A DNA stretch of 16,510 nt, from assembly GCA_004173255.1 (NCBI GenBank), contig SDZZ01000146.1, forward strand, positions 1 through 16,510, in the 5' to 3' direction. This document shows, one piece after another, positions 3,066-12,718 of the stretch. Origin of the DNA: Chitinophagaceae bacterium (lineage in GTDB: Bacteria > Bacteroidota > Bacteroidia > Chitinophagales > Chitinophagaceae). The notes beneath the pieces were generated by a model that saw only the letters and a program-made list of their open reading frames with translations, did not search any database and was not told the DNA's origin. Position numbers and translations under genes: made by a program. Position 1 is the first letter of the stretch. The number at the start of each line of letters is the position of its first letter.

Positions 3066-3266
3066 ATGTTTAAACAGCTGCTGCAGAAAAACCGGGATAT
3101 GATCCATGGTGCCTTTGTGATCAATGAAGAAGGCAACAAGGTCCTGTTCCGGTACACGATGCAGCTGGAAAATATCAATTTCAATGAATTTGAAGGCGCC
3201 ATCAATTCATTGGGTTTGCTGCTGAGCGAGTATTACCAACAAATTATTAATTTTTCAAAATTGTAG
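3066..3266 (+). CDS. Small hypothetical protein (66 aa), probably the first gene of the pspA operon
   Basis: The ORF ends at TAG 3264-3266, 4 bp before the pspA ATG. It is on the same strand and sits right after the operator-bearing promoter. I recognise no family. It overlaps an antisense ORF 3011..3205 that is less plausible. Confidence 0.4.
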   Translation: MFKQLLQKNRDMIHGAFVINEEGNKVLFRYTMQLENINFNEFEGAINSLGLLLSEYYQQIINFSKL

Positions 3267-3270
3267 TATT

Positions 3271-3969
3271 ATGAATCTGTTTAAAAGAATCTTCAGGATC
3301 GGACAGGCTGAAATCCATGCTGCTGTTGAAAAAATGGAAGATCCGGTAAAAATGACCGAGCAGGGGCTGCGCGAACTGAGGGAAGACCTGGCACAGGCGA
3401 CCGAAGCCTATGCCCGCGTGAAGGCCCTGGCCATCCGGACCGAAAATGAAAAAGAAGTTTGCCAGAAAGAGTCGCTGAACTACGCCGAAAAAGCTATATT
3501 GATCATGCAAAAAGCACAGCATGGCGAAGTGGAAATCGTGAAAGCCGAACAACTGGCCCGTGAAGCACTCTCACTGCGCCGGCAATACTACACGGACTCC
3601 GAAAATCTTGCCGTGCAGGTAGTTGCTCACCAGCAAAGCTCCCAGGAAATGCTGAATAATATCGGCATCCTAAAAGAGAACCTGGCGAAATGGGAAAAAG
3701 AACTGAAAACACTGAAGGCACGGGTGAAAGTGAGCAAGGCCACGCAGCAGGTAAACAAACAACTGGCCCAGCTGGATACGAACGGCACCATTGCCATGCT
3801 GGAACGGATGAAAGAAAAAGTGGAAGACCAGGAAGCCCTGTCGAAAGCCTATGGTGAAATAGCAAGGGATAAACACACCATGAAGGACGAACTGGACAAG
3901 ATCCTGAAAGATGATACCACGTCGATAGAAAAAGACCTGGCTGCGATAAAGACCAAGCTTGGGATGTAG
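3271..3969 (+). CDS. pspA: PspA/IM30 family protein (phage-shock protein A / Vipp1 / LiaH; bacterial ESCRT-III superfamily)
   Basis: 232 aa. The N-terminus MNLFKRIFRIGQAEIHAAVEKMEDPVKMTEQGLRELREDL matches the PspA signature (F-R-x-x-I-x-A-x-x-x-K-x-EDP-x-K-M...). The rest is long heptad-rich helical sequence of typical PspA length. Confidence 0.85.
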   Translation: MNLFKRIFRIGQAEIHAAVEKMEDPVKMTEQGLRELREDLAQATEAYARVKALAIRTENEKEVCQKESLNYAEKAILIMQKAQHGEVEIVKAEQLAREALSLRRQYYTDSENLAVQVVAHQQSSQEMLNNIGILKENLAKWEKELKTLKARVKVSKATQQVNKQLAQLDTNGTIAMLERMKEKVEDQEALSKAYGEIARDKHTMKDELDKILKDDTTSIEKDLAAIKTKLGM

Positions 3970-4003
3970 GGTTGTCGATACCGAAGTGGACATGACCATA
4001 ATA

Positions 4004-4192
4004 TCCCTCCGGGATGACAAAAGCTTGTGAGGTCCCTCCGGGATGACAAACCTCGGGATGTCCCTCCGGAATGACAAAAGCTTGGGAGGTCCCTCCGGGA
4101 TGACAAAAGCTTCAAAGGTCCCTCCGGGATGACAAACCTCGGGATGTCCCTCCGGAATGACAAAAGCTTGTGAGGTCCCTCCGGGATGACAA
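4004..4192. repeat. Tandem repeat array 1: 7 units of about 29 bp (consensus GTCCCTCCGG[G/A]ATGACAAA plus about 10 variable nt)
   Basis: Units begin at about 4004, 4033, 4061, 4090, 4119, 4148 and 4175. The conserved 19-nt core is followed by short variable segments (AGCTTGTGAG, CCTCGGGAT, AGCTTGGGAG, AGCTTCAAAG), several used more than once. A higher-order duplication of about 86 bp is visible. The array lies between the pspA stop (3969) and the nfeD start (4254). Confidence 0.9.
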
Positions 4193-4253
4193 GTCCCATC
4201 GGGGTTACAAACGCGCTGTGAAAGACGAACCGAACACGAACCAAACAACCAAC

Positions 4254-4934
4254 ATGCTCTCCACCTTATCCGAACTACTGTTCCATCCGCTATCCAACGC
4301 TATCATGACTATCCTGTCAGGCATTACGGCGTTGTACTGGATTTTCTCCTTCCTGGCAGGCGACTTCCTGGGTGATATGGATTTTGCACCCGAGGTGGAT
4401 GGCGGAATTGGCGTGGATACAGATGCTGATATCGATGCAGGGGAAGCGGGGGGTGAACAATCATTCTTTTCGAAAGCGCTGGAGTTTGTCAACGTGGGCA
4501 AAGTGCCGTTCATGATCGTATACAGCGTGTTTAAATTCATAGCATGGATCATTACACTGCTTAGTTCGGTCGTTTTTAAAATCGCAGACTGGGGCTGGAA
4601 GTCCGCGTTGATCCTGATCCCCGTCTTTATCATCGCATTCCTCATTACCAGGTATGCAACAAAACCATTAGTGAAGATGTACAATGCCATGGGCTATAAC
4701 GGCGAAGAAGCACACGACCTCATTGGCCGGATCGCCAGGATGCGCTCAGCCGTAACCGGCGACAAGATCGGTGCGGCAGAACTGGTGATCAATAACGATG
4801 TGATCCGCATCAATGTCAAAAGCAAATCGGGCGACCCTATCAACTACAACTCCGAAGTCATGATCGCTGACGAATCGACCGATAAACGATACTATTACGT
4901 AGTACCCGAAATAACATTAAACAATATCCTTTAA
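4254..4934 (+). CDS. NfeD/YqiJ-like membrane protein (partner of SPFH/flotillin proteins)
   Basis: About 226 aa from ATG 4254 (the track ORF begins at 4170, inside the repeat). It has hydrophobic TM segments (ILSGITALYWIFSFLAG; FMIVYSVFKFIAWIITLLSSVVF; ALILIPVFIIAFLI) and a C-terminal soluble beta-rich region (VTGDKIGAAELVINNDVIRINVKS...) consistent with an NfeD-type OB-fold. It sits immediately upstream of a flotillin gene, as in yqiJ-yqiK and nfeD-floT pairs. Confidence 0.7.
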   Translation: MLSTLSELLFHPLSNAIMTILSGITALYWIFSFLAGDFLGDMDFAPEVDGGIGVDTDADIDAGEAGGEQSFFSKALEFVNVGKVPFMIVYSVFKFIAWIITLLSSVVFKIADWGWKSALILIPVFIIAFLITRYATKPLVKMYNAMGYNGEEAHDLIGRIARMRSAVTGDKIGAAELVINNDVIRINVKSKSGDPINYNSEVMIADESTDKRYYYVVPEITLNNIL

Positions 4935-5016: not shown

Positions 5017-7050
5017 ATGTTTGACGCACTAGGCGGAATTACCCTCGTTATTATCGGAAGCGTCGCCTTCCTTGTTTTCATCATCCTCGCTGCATTCGCC
5101 AGCTTCTATAAAAAAATCCCACAGGGAAAGGCAATTGTACGAACCGGTGTGGGCGGCGGTAAAGTCGCTTTCAACCAGGGTATGTATGTGATCCCCATCC
5201 TGCATAAAATGGAGATCATGGACATCTCCGTCAAAAAACTGCAGATCGACCGGATGGAAGGTGAAGGACTGATCTGTAAAGACAATATCCGGGCAGACAT
5301 TAAGGTAGCCTTCTTCGTCCGCGTCAATAAAAGTGTTGAAGACGTCCTGAACGTAGCACAGATCATCGGCACGGAACGAGCCAGCGACACGGAAACACTC
5401 ACCAACCTGTTCGAAGCCAAATTTTCGGAAGCACTGAAAACCGTGGGTAAAAAATTTGACTTCATTTCCCTGTATGAAGCACGCCGGGAATTCAGGAATG
5501 AAATCCTTGATATCATCGGGACCGACCTGAACGGCTACATCCTGGATGATTGTGCCATCGACTACCTGGAACAAACCGAAATGAAATTCCTGAGTCCGGG
5601 TAATATCCTCGATTCGGAAGGCATCCGCAAAATCACCGAACTGACTGCGGCGCAGAATATCAACGCCAACCTGATCCGCCGGGAAGAAGAAAAAGTGATC
5701 AAGAAACAAAACGTGGAAGCACGCGAAGCGATTCTTGAACTGGACCGCCAGCTGGCCGAAAAAGAAGAGAAACAAAAACGCGAGATCGATAACGTTAAGT
5801 CACGCGAGTACGCCGAAACGCTCAAGGTACGGGAAGAAGAACGACTGAAATCGGAAACCGTCCGCATCAAGACTGATGAGAGCCTTGCTGTACAGGAAGA
5901 AAATAAACTACGCCAGGTGATCATCGCTGCAAAAAACAAGGAACGTACCAATGCAGTGGAAACGGAACGTGTGGAAAAAGACCGCGCACTCGAAGCGAAC
6001 GAGCGGGAAAAGATTGTTACCCTGGCACAGATTGAAAAGGAACGCAATATCGAGGTGGAAAAGAAAAATATCCAGGATGTGATCCGCGAAAGGGTTAAAC
6101 TGGAAAAAGGGGTAGCAGAAGAACAGCAAAACATGAAGGACATCGAATCTTTCCGTACCGTAGAGCGTGCGAAAACAGTGGGCATCACCGACGCAAGCAG
6201 GCTGGCCGAAGAAAAACTGATCTACACCGTGAAAGCCGCAGAAGCGGATAAAAAAGCAGCGGGTGAAAAAGCACAACAGATGATCATCGATGCAGAAGCG
6301 AAAAAAGAAGCTTCTGTAAAAGAAGCAGAAGCACGTAAGATACTGGCTGACGCTATGGCGCGCGAAGAAGCCACACTTGGCTTATCTGAAGCAGAAGTAA
6401 TGATTGCCAAAGCCGAAGCGCTCGAACGCCAGGGTATGGTCGATGCAGGCGTAGTAGAAAAAATGGCTGAAGCAAGACGAAAAGAAGGACTCGCCGAAGC
6501 GGAAATAACCCGCGAAAAAGCATTCGCCGAAGCCGCAGGTATATCCGAAAAAGCGGAAGCCATGAAAAAAATGGATGGCGTGGGTAAGGAACACGAAGAA
6601 TTCAAACTGGTACTGCAAAAGGACAAGGAAATTGCACTGGCACATATCAGTATCAACAAGGATATTGCTGTTGCGCAGGCCGACGTACTGGGCACCGCAC
6701 TTAAGACCGCGAAGATCGACATCGTGGGTGGCGAAACCATGTTCTTTCAGAACATCGTGAACCAGATCTCCAACGCCAAAGGGTTCGACCGATTGATCAA
6801 TGAAAGTGAAAATGCAACCGCAATAAAAAATGCCCTGCTGGGCGATAGCGAAGGTGGCAACCCGCTGGAACGCATCCGGAATTTTGCAGAGAAATACAAG
6901 ATCTCTTCAAATGATTTAAAGAACCTGACCATCTCGGGCCTGATCCTGAAGATGCAGTCCAACAGCTCCGATGACGACCGCAATTCGCTGCTCGACCTGA
7001 GCCGGATCGCCAATAGCCTCGGCCTGGCAAACAAGAAGCTGAACGCCTAA
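5017..7050 (+). CDS. Flotillin-like SPFH/band-7 family protein (YqiK/FloT-like)
   Basis: 677 aa. N-terminal TM helix (ITLVIIGSVAFLVFIILAAFA), an SPFH domain (GKAIVRTGVGGGKVAFNQGMYVIPILHKMEIMDISVKKLQI...), then a very long Glu/Ala/Lys-rich coiled-coil flotillin domain (EAEAKKEASVKEAEARKILADAMAREEA...). The antisense ORFs in this span (5562..6188, 6222..6740) are low-complexity artefacts. Confidence 0.9.
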   Translation: MFDALGGITLVIIGSVAFLVFIILAAFASFYKKIPQGKAIVRTGVGGGKVAFNQGMYVIPILHKMEIMDISVKKLQIDRMEGEGLICKDNIRADIKVAFFVRVNKSVEDVLNVAQIIGTERASDTETLTNLFEAKFSEALKTVGKKFDFISLYEARREFRNEILDIIGTDLNGYILDDCAIDYLEQTEMKFLSPGNILDSEGIRKITELTAAQNINANLIRREEEKVIKKQNVEAREAILELDRQLAEKEEKQKREIDNVKSREYAETLKVREEERLKSETVRIKTDESLAVQEENKLRQVIIAAKNKERTNAVETERVEKDRALEANEREKIVTLAQIEKERNIEVEKKNIQDVIRERVKLEKGVAEEQQNMKDIESFRTVERAKTVGITDASRLAEEKLIYTVKAAEADKKAAGEKAQQMIIDAEAKKEASVKEAEARKILADAMAREEATLGLSEAEVMIAKAEALERQGMVDAGVVEKMAEARRKEGLAEAEITREKAFAEAAGISEKAEAMKKMDGVGKEHEEFKLVLQKDKEIALAHISINKDIAVAQADVLGTALKTAKIDIVGGETMFFQNIVNQISNAKGFDRLINESENATAIKNALLGDSEGGNPLERIRNFAEKYKISSNDLKNLTISGLILKMQSNSSDDDRNSLLDLSRIANSLGLANKKLNA

Positions 7051-10100: not shown

Positions 10101-11976
10101 GCTCGATGTGGCATCACAGGAAAAACTGCAGCATTTAATTACAGCTGCCGCTTCTATCGAAGATAGTTTCCCGGGCAGCCGCCAGTACTCTTTTGTCATT
10201 GATCGTATCAGCAACCAATACAATACCCTGGCGGTTCCAGCCATCGCTTTAGCCGACGCGTCCGATGTTGCCGGATACCTTTACCGCGAATTTGCCACCG
10301 GCCGCAACTTCACTGCCAGCCAGCAGGCGGTTAAAATCAGGAAGGGGTTCAATGATTTTTTACTGTCAAATAAAAAACTCGAACTCTTCAGGCAGGACTC
10401 GGAAAACGGTTCGTTCAGCCTGGAAGAAAAGTTTTTTGTGATCCAGAACTGGCTGCAGGCATTTTTAGCAAAAGATGGTGGCGACCAGTTGTACATTACC
10501 GAGGCTGTATGCCTGCTGCTGTTCCGCGATCATGCCTACCGTGAACGACCGGCCAACGACCACGCAGTGGTGGGCAATCTTAAAGGCAGCCACGGGGTCA
10601 TTGTTGAACAGCAATACCAGCTCCACTTTCATCGCTTCCTGGAAAAAATGTCCGGCTATACCTCTGCTATTGTGCCCGCATTTACGGCGTTCAATCAACT
10701 GAAGACGGAGCTGGCCGCTGCTTATCGCCAGCAACTGCGGATCAACGAATTTGAGCCGCGTGTGCTGAGTTCGTTTGTACGAAACCGGCTTATCAATGAA
10801 ATATATTTCCCGCTCATCGGTGGCAATCTTGCCAAACAGATCGGCAGTGCGGGCGATGATAAACGCACAGCCCGGATGGGCATGTTGCTGCTGGTATCCC
10901 CTCCCGGCTATGGTAAGACCACCTTGATGGAATATCTGTCCCGTACTATGGGATTACATTTTGTAAAAATCAACGGGCCGACTATCGGTCACAGCATTAC
11001 ATCGATCGACCCCGTGGAAGCCACCACCTCCGGTGCCAGGGAAGAACTGAAAAAGATCAACCTGGCCATGGAGATGGCAGACAACGTGATGTTGTATCTC
11101 GACGATATCCAGCACTGCAGTGCCGAGTTCCTGCAGAAGTTTATTTCGCTGGCCGATGGCCAGCGCAAGATGGATGGCATTTTTGAAGGCAACAGCCGCA
11201 CCTACGATCTTCGCGGCAAAAGATTCTGCATTGTGATGGCCGGTAATCCATACACGGAAAGCGGCGAACAATTCAAAATCCCGGACATGCTGGCCAACCG
11301 GGCGGATGTGTACAACCTCGGCGATGTGATCGGTTCATCAGACCAGTTATTTAACCTGAGCCTGGTTGAAAATGCAGTAGCGGAGAACCGTTACCTGCAA
11401 AGGATTACCAACCGGAGTTTTGATGACCTCTATAAACTGGTTGATTACCTGGAAACCGGTGCAGAAATGATGCCGGTGCTGGAAGGCAATTACGTGGGCC
11501 AGGAAGTGGACGATGCGCTGGCTGTATTGAAAAATGTACTGGAAGTACGCAAAGTGGTGATCCAGGTGAACCAGCATTATATCGCCAGCGCTGCCATGAA
11601 AGATAGTTACCGTACAGAACCCGCATTCAAACTGCAGGGCTCTTATCGCAATATGAATAAGATGGTTGGTAAAATTGTACCAATGATGAACCGGCAGGAA
11701 GTGGATACATTAATGCTGTCCCACTATGAAAGCGAATCACAGACGCTCACCTCCGATGCCGAGGCAAACCTGCTGAAGTTAAAAGAGCTGATGGGTAACC
11801 AGTCGGACCAGGAACGCCAGCGCTGGGAACAGATCAAAACCATTTTTCGAAAGAATAATAAGTTCGGCGGACTGGATAGCAGCGACACATCAGGTCAGAT
11901 GCTGATGCAGCTCAGTAGTTTTAATGAACACCTGGAAGCAATTGCGAGTGCAATGCAGAATGGCAAAACAAAATAA
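7132..11976 (+). CDS. Giant (about 1615 aa) uncharacterised protein with a C-terminal MoxR/AAA_5 (dynein-related) type ATPase domain
   Basis: The ORF is 4.85 kb and uninterrupted. The track starts it at GTG 7123, but ATG 7132 is more likely. Walker A is LLLVSPPGYGKTTL (G-Y-G-K-T at nt 10906-10920). Walker B is VMLYLDDIQ (nt about 11091-11111). IVMAGNPYTESGEQFKIPDMLANRADVYNL resembles the MoxR/AAA_5 ATxNP...LPxAxLDRF sensor/arginine region. Before the ATPase there is a roughly 430-aa beta-rich N-terminal region and roughly 800 aa of mostly helical/coiled-coil sequence. After it there is a roughly 200-aa C-terminal tail. Confidence 0.9.
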   Translation: MDVKDKNQGSALDSGTYEIIRNRLDAQRVDLGARLAKLNAARHEIFSATGFELIANQRITTENHGEARGLIALGDLCIFGYNVHFGLRENIKLSDVFSVYRFASDHFEPQPLTLIDDPGFITDFTNLYKYYRDSLFAKFHLAGNYLFMIFQTSKNPEDKKAFKWMIRGNTLQYVDDRSLQEVQKAPQHDFHWNRTSLEDRRLGVHPHISILDKVFIEAIGGDITFKIENNTATGRGIYSEPVMNRDQQLDDAEYYYADLGNLIAIKIRPYQEEARSFIFNIRTREVKPIRMLLDAGILLPDNQGVIFPNGYYLQNGEYKIFESDLSNLEFIRSIASPNGEDLLYVFYQVRLNTYVLMSYNIISHQVETPIICNGFTVFNDGKLIYFRSEQEAVRHHQVQIWQTPYTAVLQENEAMQDNVLFKIGNKDIVSAMSESHEIMQLLGKEDSFERLYEDINKKANDLVDSYFWIRDEAAFNLAAPLEQIRDIAATAIDEFARVQAQRQHARDTMAAMQKKVEQLVIDVKNSVVTSLDQLVKILAGVRDMQGAVIDLSNVKYIQPEQVAKLKELLDHYNGSLSQDTINFLLKDQALQPYEQKVTDQKAAVAKVTKVVEAQEIEKAITGIAGELEMLIDILNSLKIDDSTQSTRIIEKISLIFSSLNEVKADLVRNIRSLRNKEATGEFYAQLTLLEQGIVSFLDLSTTPDKAENYFTKVSVQIEELESRFADFPDFVLKIADKRDEVIKAFNVKKEMLVAAINKRTASLEQIGLRVLKNISNKAASFDSKEKIYAFFSADLMIGKVRSLAEELAALGDVAKAENLENQLKLAQEEALRNLKDKTDLFVDGQNIISLGDHKFVVNKQVLDLSIIRKDEKLFYHLTGTSFYKEVSAENLYQYRNIWEQEIISENAAVYRGEYLAYETYLASLSADTGWDAVTFINERVERDYTAAYLKGVHNTDALAIYQQLKTIFDALGILRFAPSVRAAAQLFWFRLDVASQEKLQHLITAAASIEDSFPGSRQYSFVIDRISNQYNTLAVPAIALADASDVAGYLYREFATGRNFTASQQAVKIRKGFNDFLLSNKKLELFRQDSENGSFSLEEKFFVIQNWLQAFLAKDGGDQLYITEAVCLLLFRDHAYRERPANDHAVVGNLKGSHGVIVEQQYQLHFHRFLEKMSGYTSAIVPAFTAFNQLKTELAAAYRQQLRINEFEPRVLSSFVRNRLINEIYFPLIGGNLAKQIGSAGDDKRTARMGMLLLVSPPGYGKTTLMEYLSRTMGLHFVKINGPTIGHSITSIDPVEATTSGAREELKKINLAMEMADNVMLYLDDIQHCSAEFLQKFISLADGQRKMDGIFEGNSRTYDLRGKRFCIVMAGNPYTESGEQFKIPDMLANRADVYNLGDVIGSSDQLFNLSLVENAVAENRYLQRITNRSFDDLYKLVDYLETGAEMMPVLEGNYVGQEVDDALAVLKNVLEVRKVVIQVNQHYIASAAMKDSYRTEPAFKLQGSYRNMNKMVGKIVPMMNRQEVDTLMLSHYESESQTLTSDAEANLLKLKELMGNQSDQERQRWEQIKTIFRKNNKFGGLDSSDTSGQMLMQLSSFNEHLEAIASAMQNGKTK

Positions 11977-11978
11977 TG

Positions 11979-12225
11979 GTCATCCTGTAAGGATCAGGTT
12001 GTCATCCTGCAAGGATCAGGTGGCGATTGTCATCCTTTAGGGATCAGGTTGTCATCCTGTAAGGATCAGGTTGTCATCCTGAAAGGATCAGGTTGTCATC
12101 CTGTAAGGATCAGGATGCATCCTGTAAGGATCAGGTTGTCATCCTGTAAGGATAAGATTGTCATCCTGCAGGGATCACGTTGTCATCCTGTAAGGATTAG
12201 GTTGTCATCCTGTAAGGATCACTCG
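11979..12225. repeat. Tandem repeat array 2: 11 units of 22 bp (consensus GTCATCCTGTAAGGATCAGGTT)
   Basis: The array is head-to-tail with no spacers. It begins 3 nt after the giant gene's TAA stop. One unit carries a 6-nt insertion (GCGATT), one is 21 nt long, and scattered point variants occur. Each unit contains the small hairpin ATCCT-GTA-AGGAT. The ORF 12049..12273 (+) is a translation artefact of the array. Confidence 0.9.
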
Positions 12226-12232
12226 GCGGTTG

Positions 12233-12718
12233 TCAGATCTTCAGGTTCTTTATGGGCGGACCAACACGCGTAAACCCATGTTCCTGCCGTAATGCTTCCC
12301 GCTGTTCTTCGGTCATATCTTTCAGCACGCCTTGCGCACTTAATTTAAAAAATGCTTCCATCTTGCCTGCGGGCTGGAATCCCATCATCAACTTGGCTTC
12401 GCCTTCACCCACTTTGCAGAATGCATGGGGTACACCGCGCGGGCCAAATACAAAGTCGCCCGGTTTAGCAGTAAAATCCTTGCCGCCTACGCGGAATAAA
12501 AATTCACCGGTCATTACATACCACCATTCGTCCTGCGTGGCATGCACATGATAGGATTCCATCAGCGAAAGCGGCTGGTCCAACCGGTCCTTCCCCGCAT
12601 CCACCTTATACCCTTTTGCATCGCGGTTGAACCGGAACCCGTTCGCCAGGGTTCGCATCGGGACTAACGCAACTGAACCTGCGGCCAGCAGGAGTTTCAT
12701 AAAGCTGTTTCTTTTCAT
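12233..12718 (-). CDS. Secreted cupin-domain protein
   Basis: 161 aa. Signal-peptide-like N-terminus MKRNSFMKLLLAAGSVALVP. Cupin motif 1 is HVHATQDEWWYVMTGE and motif 2 is PGDFVFGPRGVPHAF. Confidence 0.8.
   Translation of the reverse strand: MKRNSFMKLLLAAGSVALVPMRTLANGFRFNRDAKGYKVDAGKDRLDQPLSLMESYHVHATQDEWWYVMTGEFLFRVGGKDFTAKPGDFVFGPRGVPHAFCKVGEGEAKLMMGFQPAGKMEAFFKLSAQGVLKDMTEEQREALRQEHGFTRVGPPIKNLKI

Follow-up and report, generated by a model that had tools for sequence, protein, structure and literature searches.

A head-to-tail cluster of miniature TGTC-tagged hairpins behind pspA in a Chitinophagaceae bacterium is probably a recent array of Ssn-type repeats

Background

The closest described relatives of the repeat discussed here are the CGTC-tagged repetitive extragenic palindromes (REPs), which carry a CGTC tag that often reads TGTC (CCTC being a variant), a stem of 8–9 bp that starts with complementary A and T residues, a loop of 4–5 nt and a tail close to CCA [Di Nocera 2013, BMC Genomics 14:522; PMC3733652]. 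Neisseria dRS3 and Rickettsia RPE-4 and RPE-6 belong to this family, in which head-to-head dimers predominate, head-to-tail ones are negligible and clusters are rare, and for which no transposase was known in 2013 (PMC3733652). Its members are dispersed between genes in many copies per genome, mainly as single units or head-to-head dimers. The enzyme of the family was identified only in 2025, and the superfamily, already described as CGTC/TGTC-tagged REPs, was later described as Ssn-related motifs (SRMs). The subject of this report is array 1, a run of seven units of about 29 bp between pspA and a yqiJ-like gene; it lies in a 16,510-bp contig of a Chitinophagaceae metagenome-assembled genome (GCA_004173255.1, SDZZ01000146.1), the whole of which was analyzed and is called the window. 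We consider it likely that array 1 is a recent, lineage-specific head-to-tail cluster of a miniature CGTC/TGTC-tagged, Ssn-type REP and not a conserved device of the psp operon, and that it is, as part of the same reading, selfish or neutral repeat DNA, neutrality being what we infer.

The enzyme SsnA, a single-domain GIY-YIG protein of 94 aa, binds the Neisseria repeat NTS, CGTCATTCCCGCGMAVGCGGGAATCYRG, as single-stranded DNA (ssDNA) only [Chenal 2025, Nat Commun 16:2388; PMC11893778]; double-stranded DNA, RNA and the reverse strand of NTS are not bound. Cutting occurs a few nucleotides 5' of the motif and is governed chiefly by the trinucleotide that precedes the palindrome; for binding, the C immediately 3' of the palindrome matters most, and a change of the stem sequence that kept the structure abolished SsnA activity (PMC11893778). 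An SRM is found near 71% of ssn homologues, and on both sides of 42% (PMC11893778). Tandem arrays are not discussed in that paper, the text of which contains neither "tandem" nor "head-to-tail" and only one everyday "array" (PMC11893778).

The units of the window resemble CGTC-tagged REPs in having an unpaired 5' tag and, clearly in array 2, an AT-initial stem, perhaps also in the few nucleotides that follow the stem, in lying between genes in either orientation, and in belonging to a family found in many phyla; they differ from the REPs of the 2013 study in their host, a member of Bacteroidota. They also resemble NTS and the SRMs in having GTC directly 5' and C directly 3' of the palindrome, positions that are critical in NTS. 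GTAG-tagged REPs, bacterial interspersed mosaic elements (BIMEs) and REP doublets (REPINs), together with their REP-associated tyrosine transposases (RAYTs), are likewise short, tagged intergenic hairpins tied to a single-copy nuclease or transposase gene that they flank, but the tag here is TGTC and not GTAG, and the partner enzyme is of the GIY-YIG type and not a HUH tyrosine transposase (Y1/HUH RAYT). Tandem reiteration of REPs has been reported in Pseudomonas, and GTAG-1 arrays with 5-bp stems flank exopolysaccharide (EPS) genes in Thauera (PMC3733652). Clustered regularly interspaced short palindromic repeats (CRISPRs) share with array 1 the regularly spaced direct repeats with an internal short palindrome, but the spacers of array 1 are only 9–12 nt long, recur and derive from the flank, and a Pfam scan of the ten main open reading frames (ORFs) of the window matched no Cas family, so that the earlier note on this DNA was right in not calling the array a CRISPR. 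The MIRU-type minisatellites of mycobacteria are, like array 1, tandem repeats between the genes of operons, with a variable copy number; their units, however, measure 46–101 bp and have no tagged hairpin and no associated nuclease.

Anatomy of array 1 and origin of its units

The features on which the argument depends are the following (positions in the window):

3271..3969, plus strand: pspA (PspA/IM30, 232 aa; Pfam PF04012, E = 9.9e-38)
3955..3966, plus strand: final four sense codons of pspA, AAGCTTGGGATG, from which the 12-nt tail of the array-1 units derives
3967..4239: whole lineage-specific insert, made up of the stop codon plus 37 nt of unique sequence, array 1, a decayed unit and a low-complexity tail
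3967..4003, plus strand: non-repeated 37-nt segment from the end of pspA to the first core, with no alignment to the units
4002..4192, minus strand: array 1, seven head-to-tail miniature TGTC-tagged hairpin units (Tandem Repeats Finder and core-pattern matches)
4002-4020, 4031-4049, 4059-4077, 4088-4106, 4117-4135, 4145-4163 and 4174-4192, minus strand: the array-1 cores (19-mers)
4193..4211, minus strand: decayed eighth unit, GTCCCATCGGGGTTACAAA on the plus strand, which aligns with the unit cores
4254..4934, plus strand: gene for a YqiJ_N-like membrane protein of 226 aa (Pfam YqiJ_N, E = 4.9e-4, below the cut-off)

The earlier note had described seven units of about 29 bp with recurring variable parts and a period of 86–87 bp at 4004-4192, located between two co-directional genes, and Tandem Repeats Finder and a unit alignment bear this description out. 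Over 4004-4192 the program reports a period of 29 (6.6 copies, 82% matches, score 273), and for the array a higher-order period of 86 (2.2 copies, 96% matches, score 350). The units are 28–29 bp long, with start-to-start spacings of 29, 28, 29, 29 and 28, and units 1–3 are 95% identical to units 4–6, together forming the higher-order duplicate. The variable parts, 9–10 nt in length, recur (AAGCTTGTGA twice, ACCTCGGGA twice). Read on the minus strand, a unit is TTGTCATCC-CGGAG-GGAC plus a tail of 9–10 nt, that is, a TGTC tag, a stem of 4–5 bp beginning with AT and a 3-nt loop; in the predicted fold of lowest free energy, TCCC pairs with GGGA around a loop of 3 nt. The core pattern TTGTCATCCYGKARGGAYC, with up to two mismatches, has 17 matches in the window, against 0.01 expected from shuffles.

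The origin of the tails is apparent from the plus strand. The 12 nt that precede each core (AAGCTTGGGAGG, AAGCTTGTGAGG, (A)ACCTCGGGATG and AAGCTTCAAAGG) are copies of AAGCTTGGGATG, the last four sense codons of pspA. With up to two mismatches, the 13-mer AAGCTTGGGATGT has six matches where 0.41 are expected, and all five non-self ones lie within array 1. KLGM or KLGI is kept in PspA orthologues, which identifies these codons as native pspA sequence, and since the tails copy native codons, the array must have grown in place. On this sequence evidence the array-1 unit is a 17-nt element plus 12 nt of flank, amplified at pspA. The eighth unit abuts unit 7 directly, without a tail, and matches the unit consensus at 16 of 21 positions (manual count). 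The TAG stop codon of pspA (3967-3969) comes from the 37-nt segment; PspA ends here with KLGM-stop, and its orthologues run two to six codons further.

Absence of the arrays from orthologous loci

Three orthologous loci were compared, one with a PspA 95% identical to that of the window (L002) and two with 91% identity (L001 and L003; L numbers denote the loci and contigs of our comparisons). The order pspA, yqiJ-like gene, 675-aa ORF, DUF3686 ATPase gene and cupin gene is kept in all three, as far as the contigs extend. The earlier note had made its functional proposal depend in part on conservation of array 1 at such loci; the array is absent from 3 of 3. The gap between pspA and the next gene is about 5–6 bp in L002 and about 42–43 bp in L003, and in L001 it holds about 60–120 bp of unrelated sequence. 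Homology to L002 found by blastn ends at window position 3966 (L002 2413) and resumes at 4240 (L002 2426), so that 273 bp in the window replace 12 bp there. Array 2, a second array further downstream that is described below, is missing from L001, where only 63 bp correspond to window 11946-12234 (blastn). Since the orthologous loci are without them, both arrays are lineage-specific gains.

In the orthologous pspA-to-yqiJ spacer of L003, a single element, AGTCATCCTGAAAAGAGGACC, is present at 5795-5815 on the plus strand, the orientation opposite to that of array 1, which suggests an independent insertion into the same spacer.

The repeat family across genomes and metagenomes

The core of the arrays matches the motif TGTCATCCYGARC, which forms tandem arrays in many phyla. 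When 185,579 species-representative genomes were scanned for TGTCATCC in three tandem copies, at least 120 loci were obtained, from Eremiobacterota, Acidobacteriota, Chloroflexota, Gemmatimonadales, Patescibacteria/Candidate Phyla Radiation (CPR) lineages, Fibrobacter, Bacteroidales, Treponema, Lachnospiraceae, Rickettsia, Wolbachia, Coxiellaceae and others. Among the loci listed, five positions 3' of the 8-mer that had not been part of the search are conserved (Y 92%, G 77%, A 61%, R 80%, C 64%), and for this reason the arrays are not chance tandem repeats; they are mostly intergenic and stand in either orientation relative to the neighboring genes. All are head-to-tail arrays, and some come from isolate and long-read genomes. 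The SRM pattern HGTCWYN(0-2)YYVSBRHN(0-5)WNVSBRGN(0-2)RNCYNB has 48 matches in these loci, compared with 6–9 in shuffles. A literature search with the DNA core returned primer coincidences only.

The 19-mer pattern of the window itself has at least 131 matches on at least 120 metagenome contigs. The fifth position of the stem shows covariation (C-G or T-A): it is paired in 127 of the 131 matches listed, many of which are interrelated copies, and broken in four. Also among the matches listed, the array-1 core (with T for C at position 18) occurs as inverted pairs in L250 and L189, and related mini-hairpin cores do so in L225 and L195. Judging from these sequences, the miniature hairpin form is a genuine sub-type of the family. 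The commonest mini hairpin among the matches listed (L155–L273) is TTGTCATCCCGTAGGGATCTGC, usually set in long low-complexity spacers rich in GTTGC and CTTTTG, on contigs from soil and peat.

Association with small GIY-YIG genes

Some of the genome-scan arrays flank an ORF of about 95 aa with a GIY-YIG domain (L094, L039). This was noticed before the literature was read, and as a rediscovery of the Ssn association it independently supports the family assignment. Inverted (T)GTCA[T/C]-stem-loop-stem-ATCCAG elements flank GIY-YIG homologues in L124, L134 and L144 and also surround the GIY-YIG genes of L094 and L039. Most of the Ssn homologues present on many contigs are one place resampled, leaving about three independent loci.

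The miniature form can be tied to such genes as well. In L184, a GIY-YIG ORF with a match to PF01541 only has a terminal inverted repeat of about 75 bp on either side; each repeat contains TTGTCATCCTGTAAGGACC, the array-2 core (19-mer) with one mismatch, in a motif-gene-motif layout. The unit, at 936-1470 of a 1.5-kb metagenome contig, looks insertion sequence-like, with an ORF of 108 aa and TTGTCATCCTGTAAGGACC in the middle of each repeat. In L191, an Ssn-like gene surrounded by mini elements belongs to a Flavobacteriales clade with named homologues in Chryseobacterium, Epilithonimonas and Elizabethkingia; the system therefore occurs in Bacteroidota. Many Ssn-like GIY-YIG proteins are encoded on contigs of 0.5–3 kb, and several are 10–40 aa longer than the 95-aa core, which is consistent with assemblies that break at the flanking repeats and ORF calls that run into them.

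Array 2

The second array of the window lies at the far end of the same gene block:

11977..12221, plus strand: array 2, about 11 head-to-tail 22-bp units TTGTCATCCTGTAAGGATCAGG (Tandem Repeats Finder period 22, 10.8 copies; ten core matches)

It begins 1 nt after the stop codon of the gene for a 1617-aa DUF3686/AAA protein and fills the gap to the convergent cupin gene. The core common to both arrays is TTGTCATCC-YGKAR-GGAYC, on the minus strand in array 1 and on the plus strand in array 2, and the units read GTC-A-TCCC-GGA-GGGA-C and GTC-ATCCT-GTA-AGGAT-C, respectively. TGTC precedes the stem in 7/7 array-1 cores and in 9/10 matched array-2 cores, the first of which reads GGTC. The stem has 5 bp and an AT start in array 2 (ATCCT/AGGAT) and 4 bp in array 1 (TCCC/GGGA); the loop is GGA in array 1 and mostly GTA in array 2, and the stem is followed by CCT in array 1 and by CAG in array 2, the canonical ATCCAGG being present in metagenome relatives (L248, L264, L272). 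In two units of array 2, an A in the 3' arm is replaced by G, which on the tagged strand would still allow a G-U/G-T wobble pair.

The two arrays are inverted with respect to each other and flank exactly the block of yqiJ-like gene, 677-aa ORF and DUF3686 ATPase gene, with their tagged ends pointing towards the block, whereas around ssn genes the tags point outwards. With only two arrays, this layout could be chance. A transposon with the arrays as its ends was rejected because L001 keeps the same gene order without them, and an invertible segment between them is unlikely because they share only a core of about 13 nt.

Proposed history of the locus

If array 1 is an amplified REP, one copy of the repeat would have landed right after the last sense codons of pspA in this Chitinophagaceae lineage and would then have been amplified in place together with 12 nt of the pspA 3' end, giving the 29-bp unit; duplication of the three-unit, 86-bp block would be the latest step. 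Array 2 would be a separate expansion, in the gap between the DUF3686 ATPase gene and the cupin gene convergent to it. The likely consequences are a pspA-to-next-gene spacer that grew from about 6–43 bp to 284 bp, loss of the variable C-terminal tail of PspA, and seven potential Ssn sites on the minus strand. The amplification mechanism of array 1, and the presence in this genome of an Ssn that acts on miniature units, are put forward by extension from the unit sequences and from the better-known relatives.

Several observations weigh against assigning array 1 to the Ssn-type REPs. The stems of the window units measure 4–5 bp and the loops 3 nt, compared with 8–9 bp and 4–5 nt in CGTC REPs, and the first stem position of array 1 is an A/C mismatch. 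The predicted hairpin of a unit has -2.1 kcal/mol and a z-score of about 0 to -1, whereas the canonical NTS reaches -9.0 kcal/mol and a z-score of -5.5, and a regex scan of the window for the SRM pattern found no match. Since a stem-sequence change in NTS abolished SsnA activity, binding of an Ssn to miniature units cannot be assumed. Both arrays of the window are long and purely head-to-tail, an arrangement negligible among CGTC REPs (PMC3733652). No ssn gene was found in the 16,510-bp window (tblastn, this contig only), and no Chitinophagaceae ssn homologue was identified by name. Finally, this reading does not account for the 37-nt segment between the end of pspA and the first core.

Alternative explanations

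A REP-derived array could have been co-opted to tune the downstream yqiJ-like, 677-aa and DUF3686 ATPase genes, as RNA or DNA, by translation uncoupling, altered mRNA decay or transcription pausing, as has been reported for some Escherichia coli REPs; we regard this as unlikely, although several facts would fit it. Read-through transcription of array 1 is plausible because the genes are co-directional and no terminator-like site is predicted within the array, the two arrays flank exactly the three downstream genes, and a 2026 preprint describes REPs as regulators in 3' untranslated regions. For the whole insert, the predicted fold of the sense-strand RNA is somewhat more stable than those of shuffles (-100.7 kcal/mol, z -2.24, 5/200 shuffles as good; antisense z -0.99). 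Against this, array 1 is absent from all three orthologues, and the insert fold is, as modeled, the generic zipper expected of any array of small palindromes; structure prediction, which the earlier note had proposed for the transcribed array, gives single units -2.1 kcal/mol and a z-score of about 0, no better than shuffles. The family tag lies on the strand antisense to the operon, and Ssn, the only characterized partner, binds ssDNA and not RNA (PMC11893778). A secondary effect of array 1 on the operon may nevertheless exist.

Two particular RNA functions were considered and dropped. A CsrA-type sponge RNA was suggested by the complement, which reads CAGGAUGA, but the GGA lies in the stem of the units, and the motif also occurs in phyla not known to have CsrA. 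The repeat RNA of a type III toxin-antitoxin system does not fit the downstream gene, which encodes a YqiJ-like membrane protein and not a ToxN-type nuclease.

An ordinary slippage minisatellite of local sequence, unrelated to REPs or Ssn and sharing its 9–13-nt core with them by coincidence, is highly unlikely. Such an origin would suit the weak hairpin, the failure of the SRM pattern, the part of the unit that is local sequence and the 86-bp higher-order duplication, which is typical of slippage or unequal exchange. It does not account for two arrays with the same core in one 16.5-kb contig, with 17 core matches against the 0.01 expected, nor for near-exact 18–19-mers on unrelated metagenome contigs, where they occur as inverted pairs and beside a GIY-YIG gene, nor for the covarying stem pair (127/131 listed matches paired).

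To a dedicated cis-element of the psp operon we attach a very small probability. The earlier note had envisaged reiterated RNA-binding or processing sites, a regulator iteron in the DNA or an internal promoter, and the regular 28–29-bp spacing, the conserved 19-nt core and the variable tail do have the look of such an element; yet the orthologous loci lack the array, its core, a pan-bacterial motif, stands beside unrelated genes in either orientation, and the "variable" tail is a copy of the end of pspA. No sigma-70-like site was predicted inside array 1, the one weak promoter-like match being upstream of it (3975-4002), and inspection of its plus strand by eye revealed no Bacteroidota-type TAnnTTTG. 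At the gathering thresholds of Rfam 15 the window matches tRNA only, and a search of 3900-4300 by E-value gave only noise (Guanidine-I at 17.3 bits, against a 63-bit cut-off, E = 0.8).

An assembly artefact, with copies collapsed, expanded or chimeric in a short-read contig, is scarcely credible: the source is metagenome-assembled, repeat-rich regions are error-prone and many Ssn-like genes sit on very short contigs, but the units are told apart by specific substitutions that follow an order, the junctions with orthologous sequence are clean at either end, and similar arrays are present in isolate and long-read genomes.

How head-to-tail arrays of the family are built

The architecture of 135 arrays was surveyed among the at least 120 genome loci (L004–L123). 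Among the loci listed, 127 of the 135 arrays have internal units without a hairpin, and in 80 of these 127 the last unit, in the orientation of the tag, is a complete hairpin, against 11.6% at random positions. A typical internal unit combines a junction of about 9 nt with a prefix of the complete element, which is modally 12–13 nt long from the G of GTC and runs through the 5' arm as far as the loop. The junction is 44% identical to the flank just 5' of the first unit, where permuted flanks give 27 +/- 2% and at most 33.5% in 1000 permutations. Since a unit is a copy of the flank plus this prefix, the breakpoints lie about 7–11 nt 5' of GTC and in the loop of the hairpin, the former roughly at the reported position of the SsnA cut. 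The arrays of the window differ from this common form in that each unit retains its mini hairpin in full, and the flank copied in array 1 is on the tail side.

A possible, though on balance doubtful, interpretation of these sequence boundaries is that head-to-tail arrays are footprints of local re-copying started at an Ssn nick, rather than of transposition. The arrays of the window would then represent a rarer outcome, in which the whole mini hairpin was copied together with tail-side flank.

Gene context

Around array 1, an HTH_3 regulator gene on the minus strand and a truncated CesT_Tir_1 gene are followed by pspA, array 1 and the YqiJ_N-like gene, and then by the 677-aa ORF, the gene for the 1617-aa DUF3686/DUF7902/AAA protein, array 2 and the convergent cupin gene. 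The gene after array 1 was labelled nfeD in the earlier note and has only the weak, sub-threshold YqiJ_N match (E = 4.9e-4); its start at the ATG at 4254 agrees with that of the L002 orthologue (MLSTLSELLF). Just 5' of it, a low-complexity 11-bp repeat, AAACACGAACC, spans 4221-4247 in 2.5 copies, and a similar AACCAAAC-rich leader precedes the yqiJ-like gene of L002. The minus-strand ORFs 3670..4248 and 3849..4244, which the earlier note took for artefacts, do appear to be such: they match no Pfam family, read through the repeat and are antisense to pspA.

The CesT_Tir_1 ORF (3066-3266) covers only the C-terminal half of the family (profile positions 66–130 of 131), about 165 bp that include its 5' half in L001 and L002 being missing from the window, and it is probably a truncated pseudogene. 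The 677-aa ORF (5017-7050) has no Pfam match at E <= 0.01; an ORF of 675 aa occupies its position in L001. The N-terminus of the 677-aa protein appears membrane-anchored, and the remainder is rich in charged residues and coiled-coil-like.

Implications

For array 1, a proposed regulatory device of the psp operon gives way to a mundane explanation, and the repeat ORFs on the minus strand are flagged as spurious. For the family, a miniature form that has a stem of 5 bp and a loop of 3 nt escapes the published definitions, with stems of 8–9 bp or the SRM pattern. Soil metagenomes contain this form in abundance (at least 131 matches on at least 120 contigs), and on at least two contigs it is associated with GIY-YIG genes. 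Head-to-tail arrays, negligible according to the 2013 report, are widespread, and their unit boundaries may inform how the repeats arise. If arrays are indeed built by re-copying from an Ssn nick, this would explain how the repeats are spread by a nuclease without strand-transfer chemistry, and the cut sites of Ssn enzymes throughout bacteria could be read from genome sequences alone.

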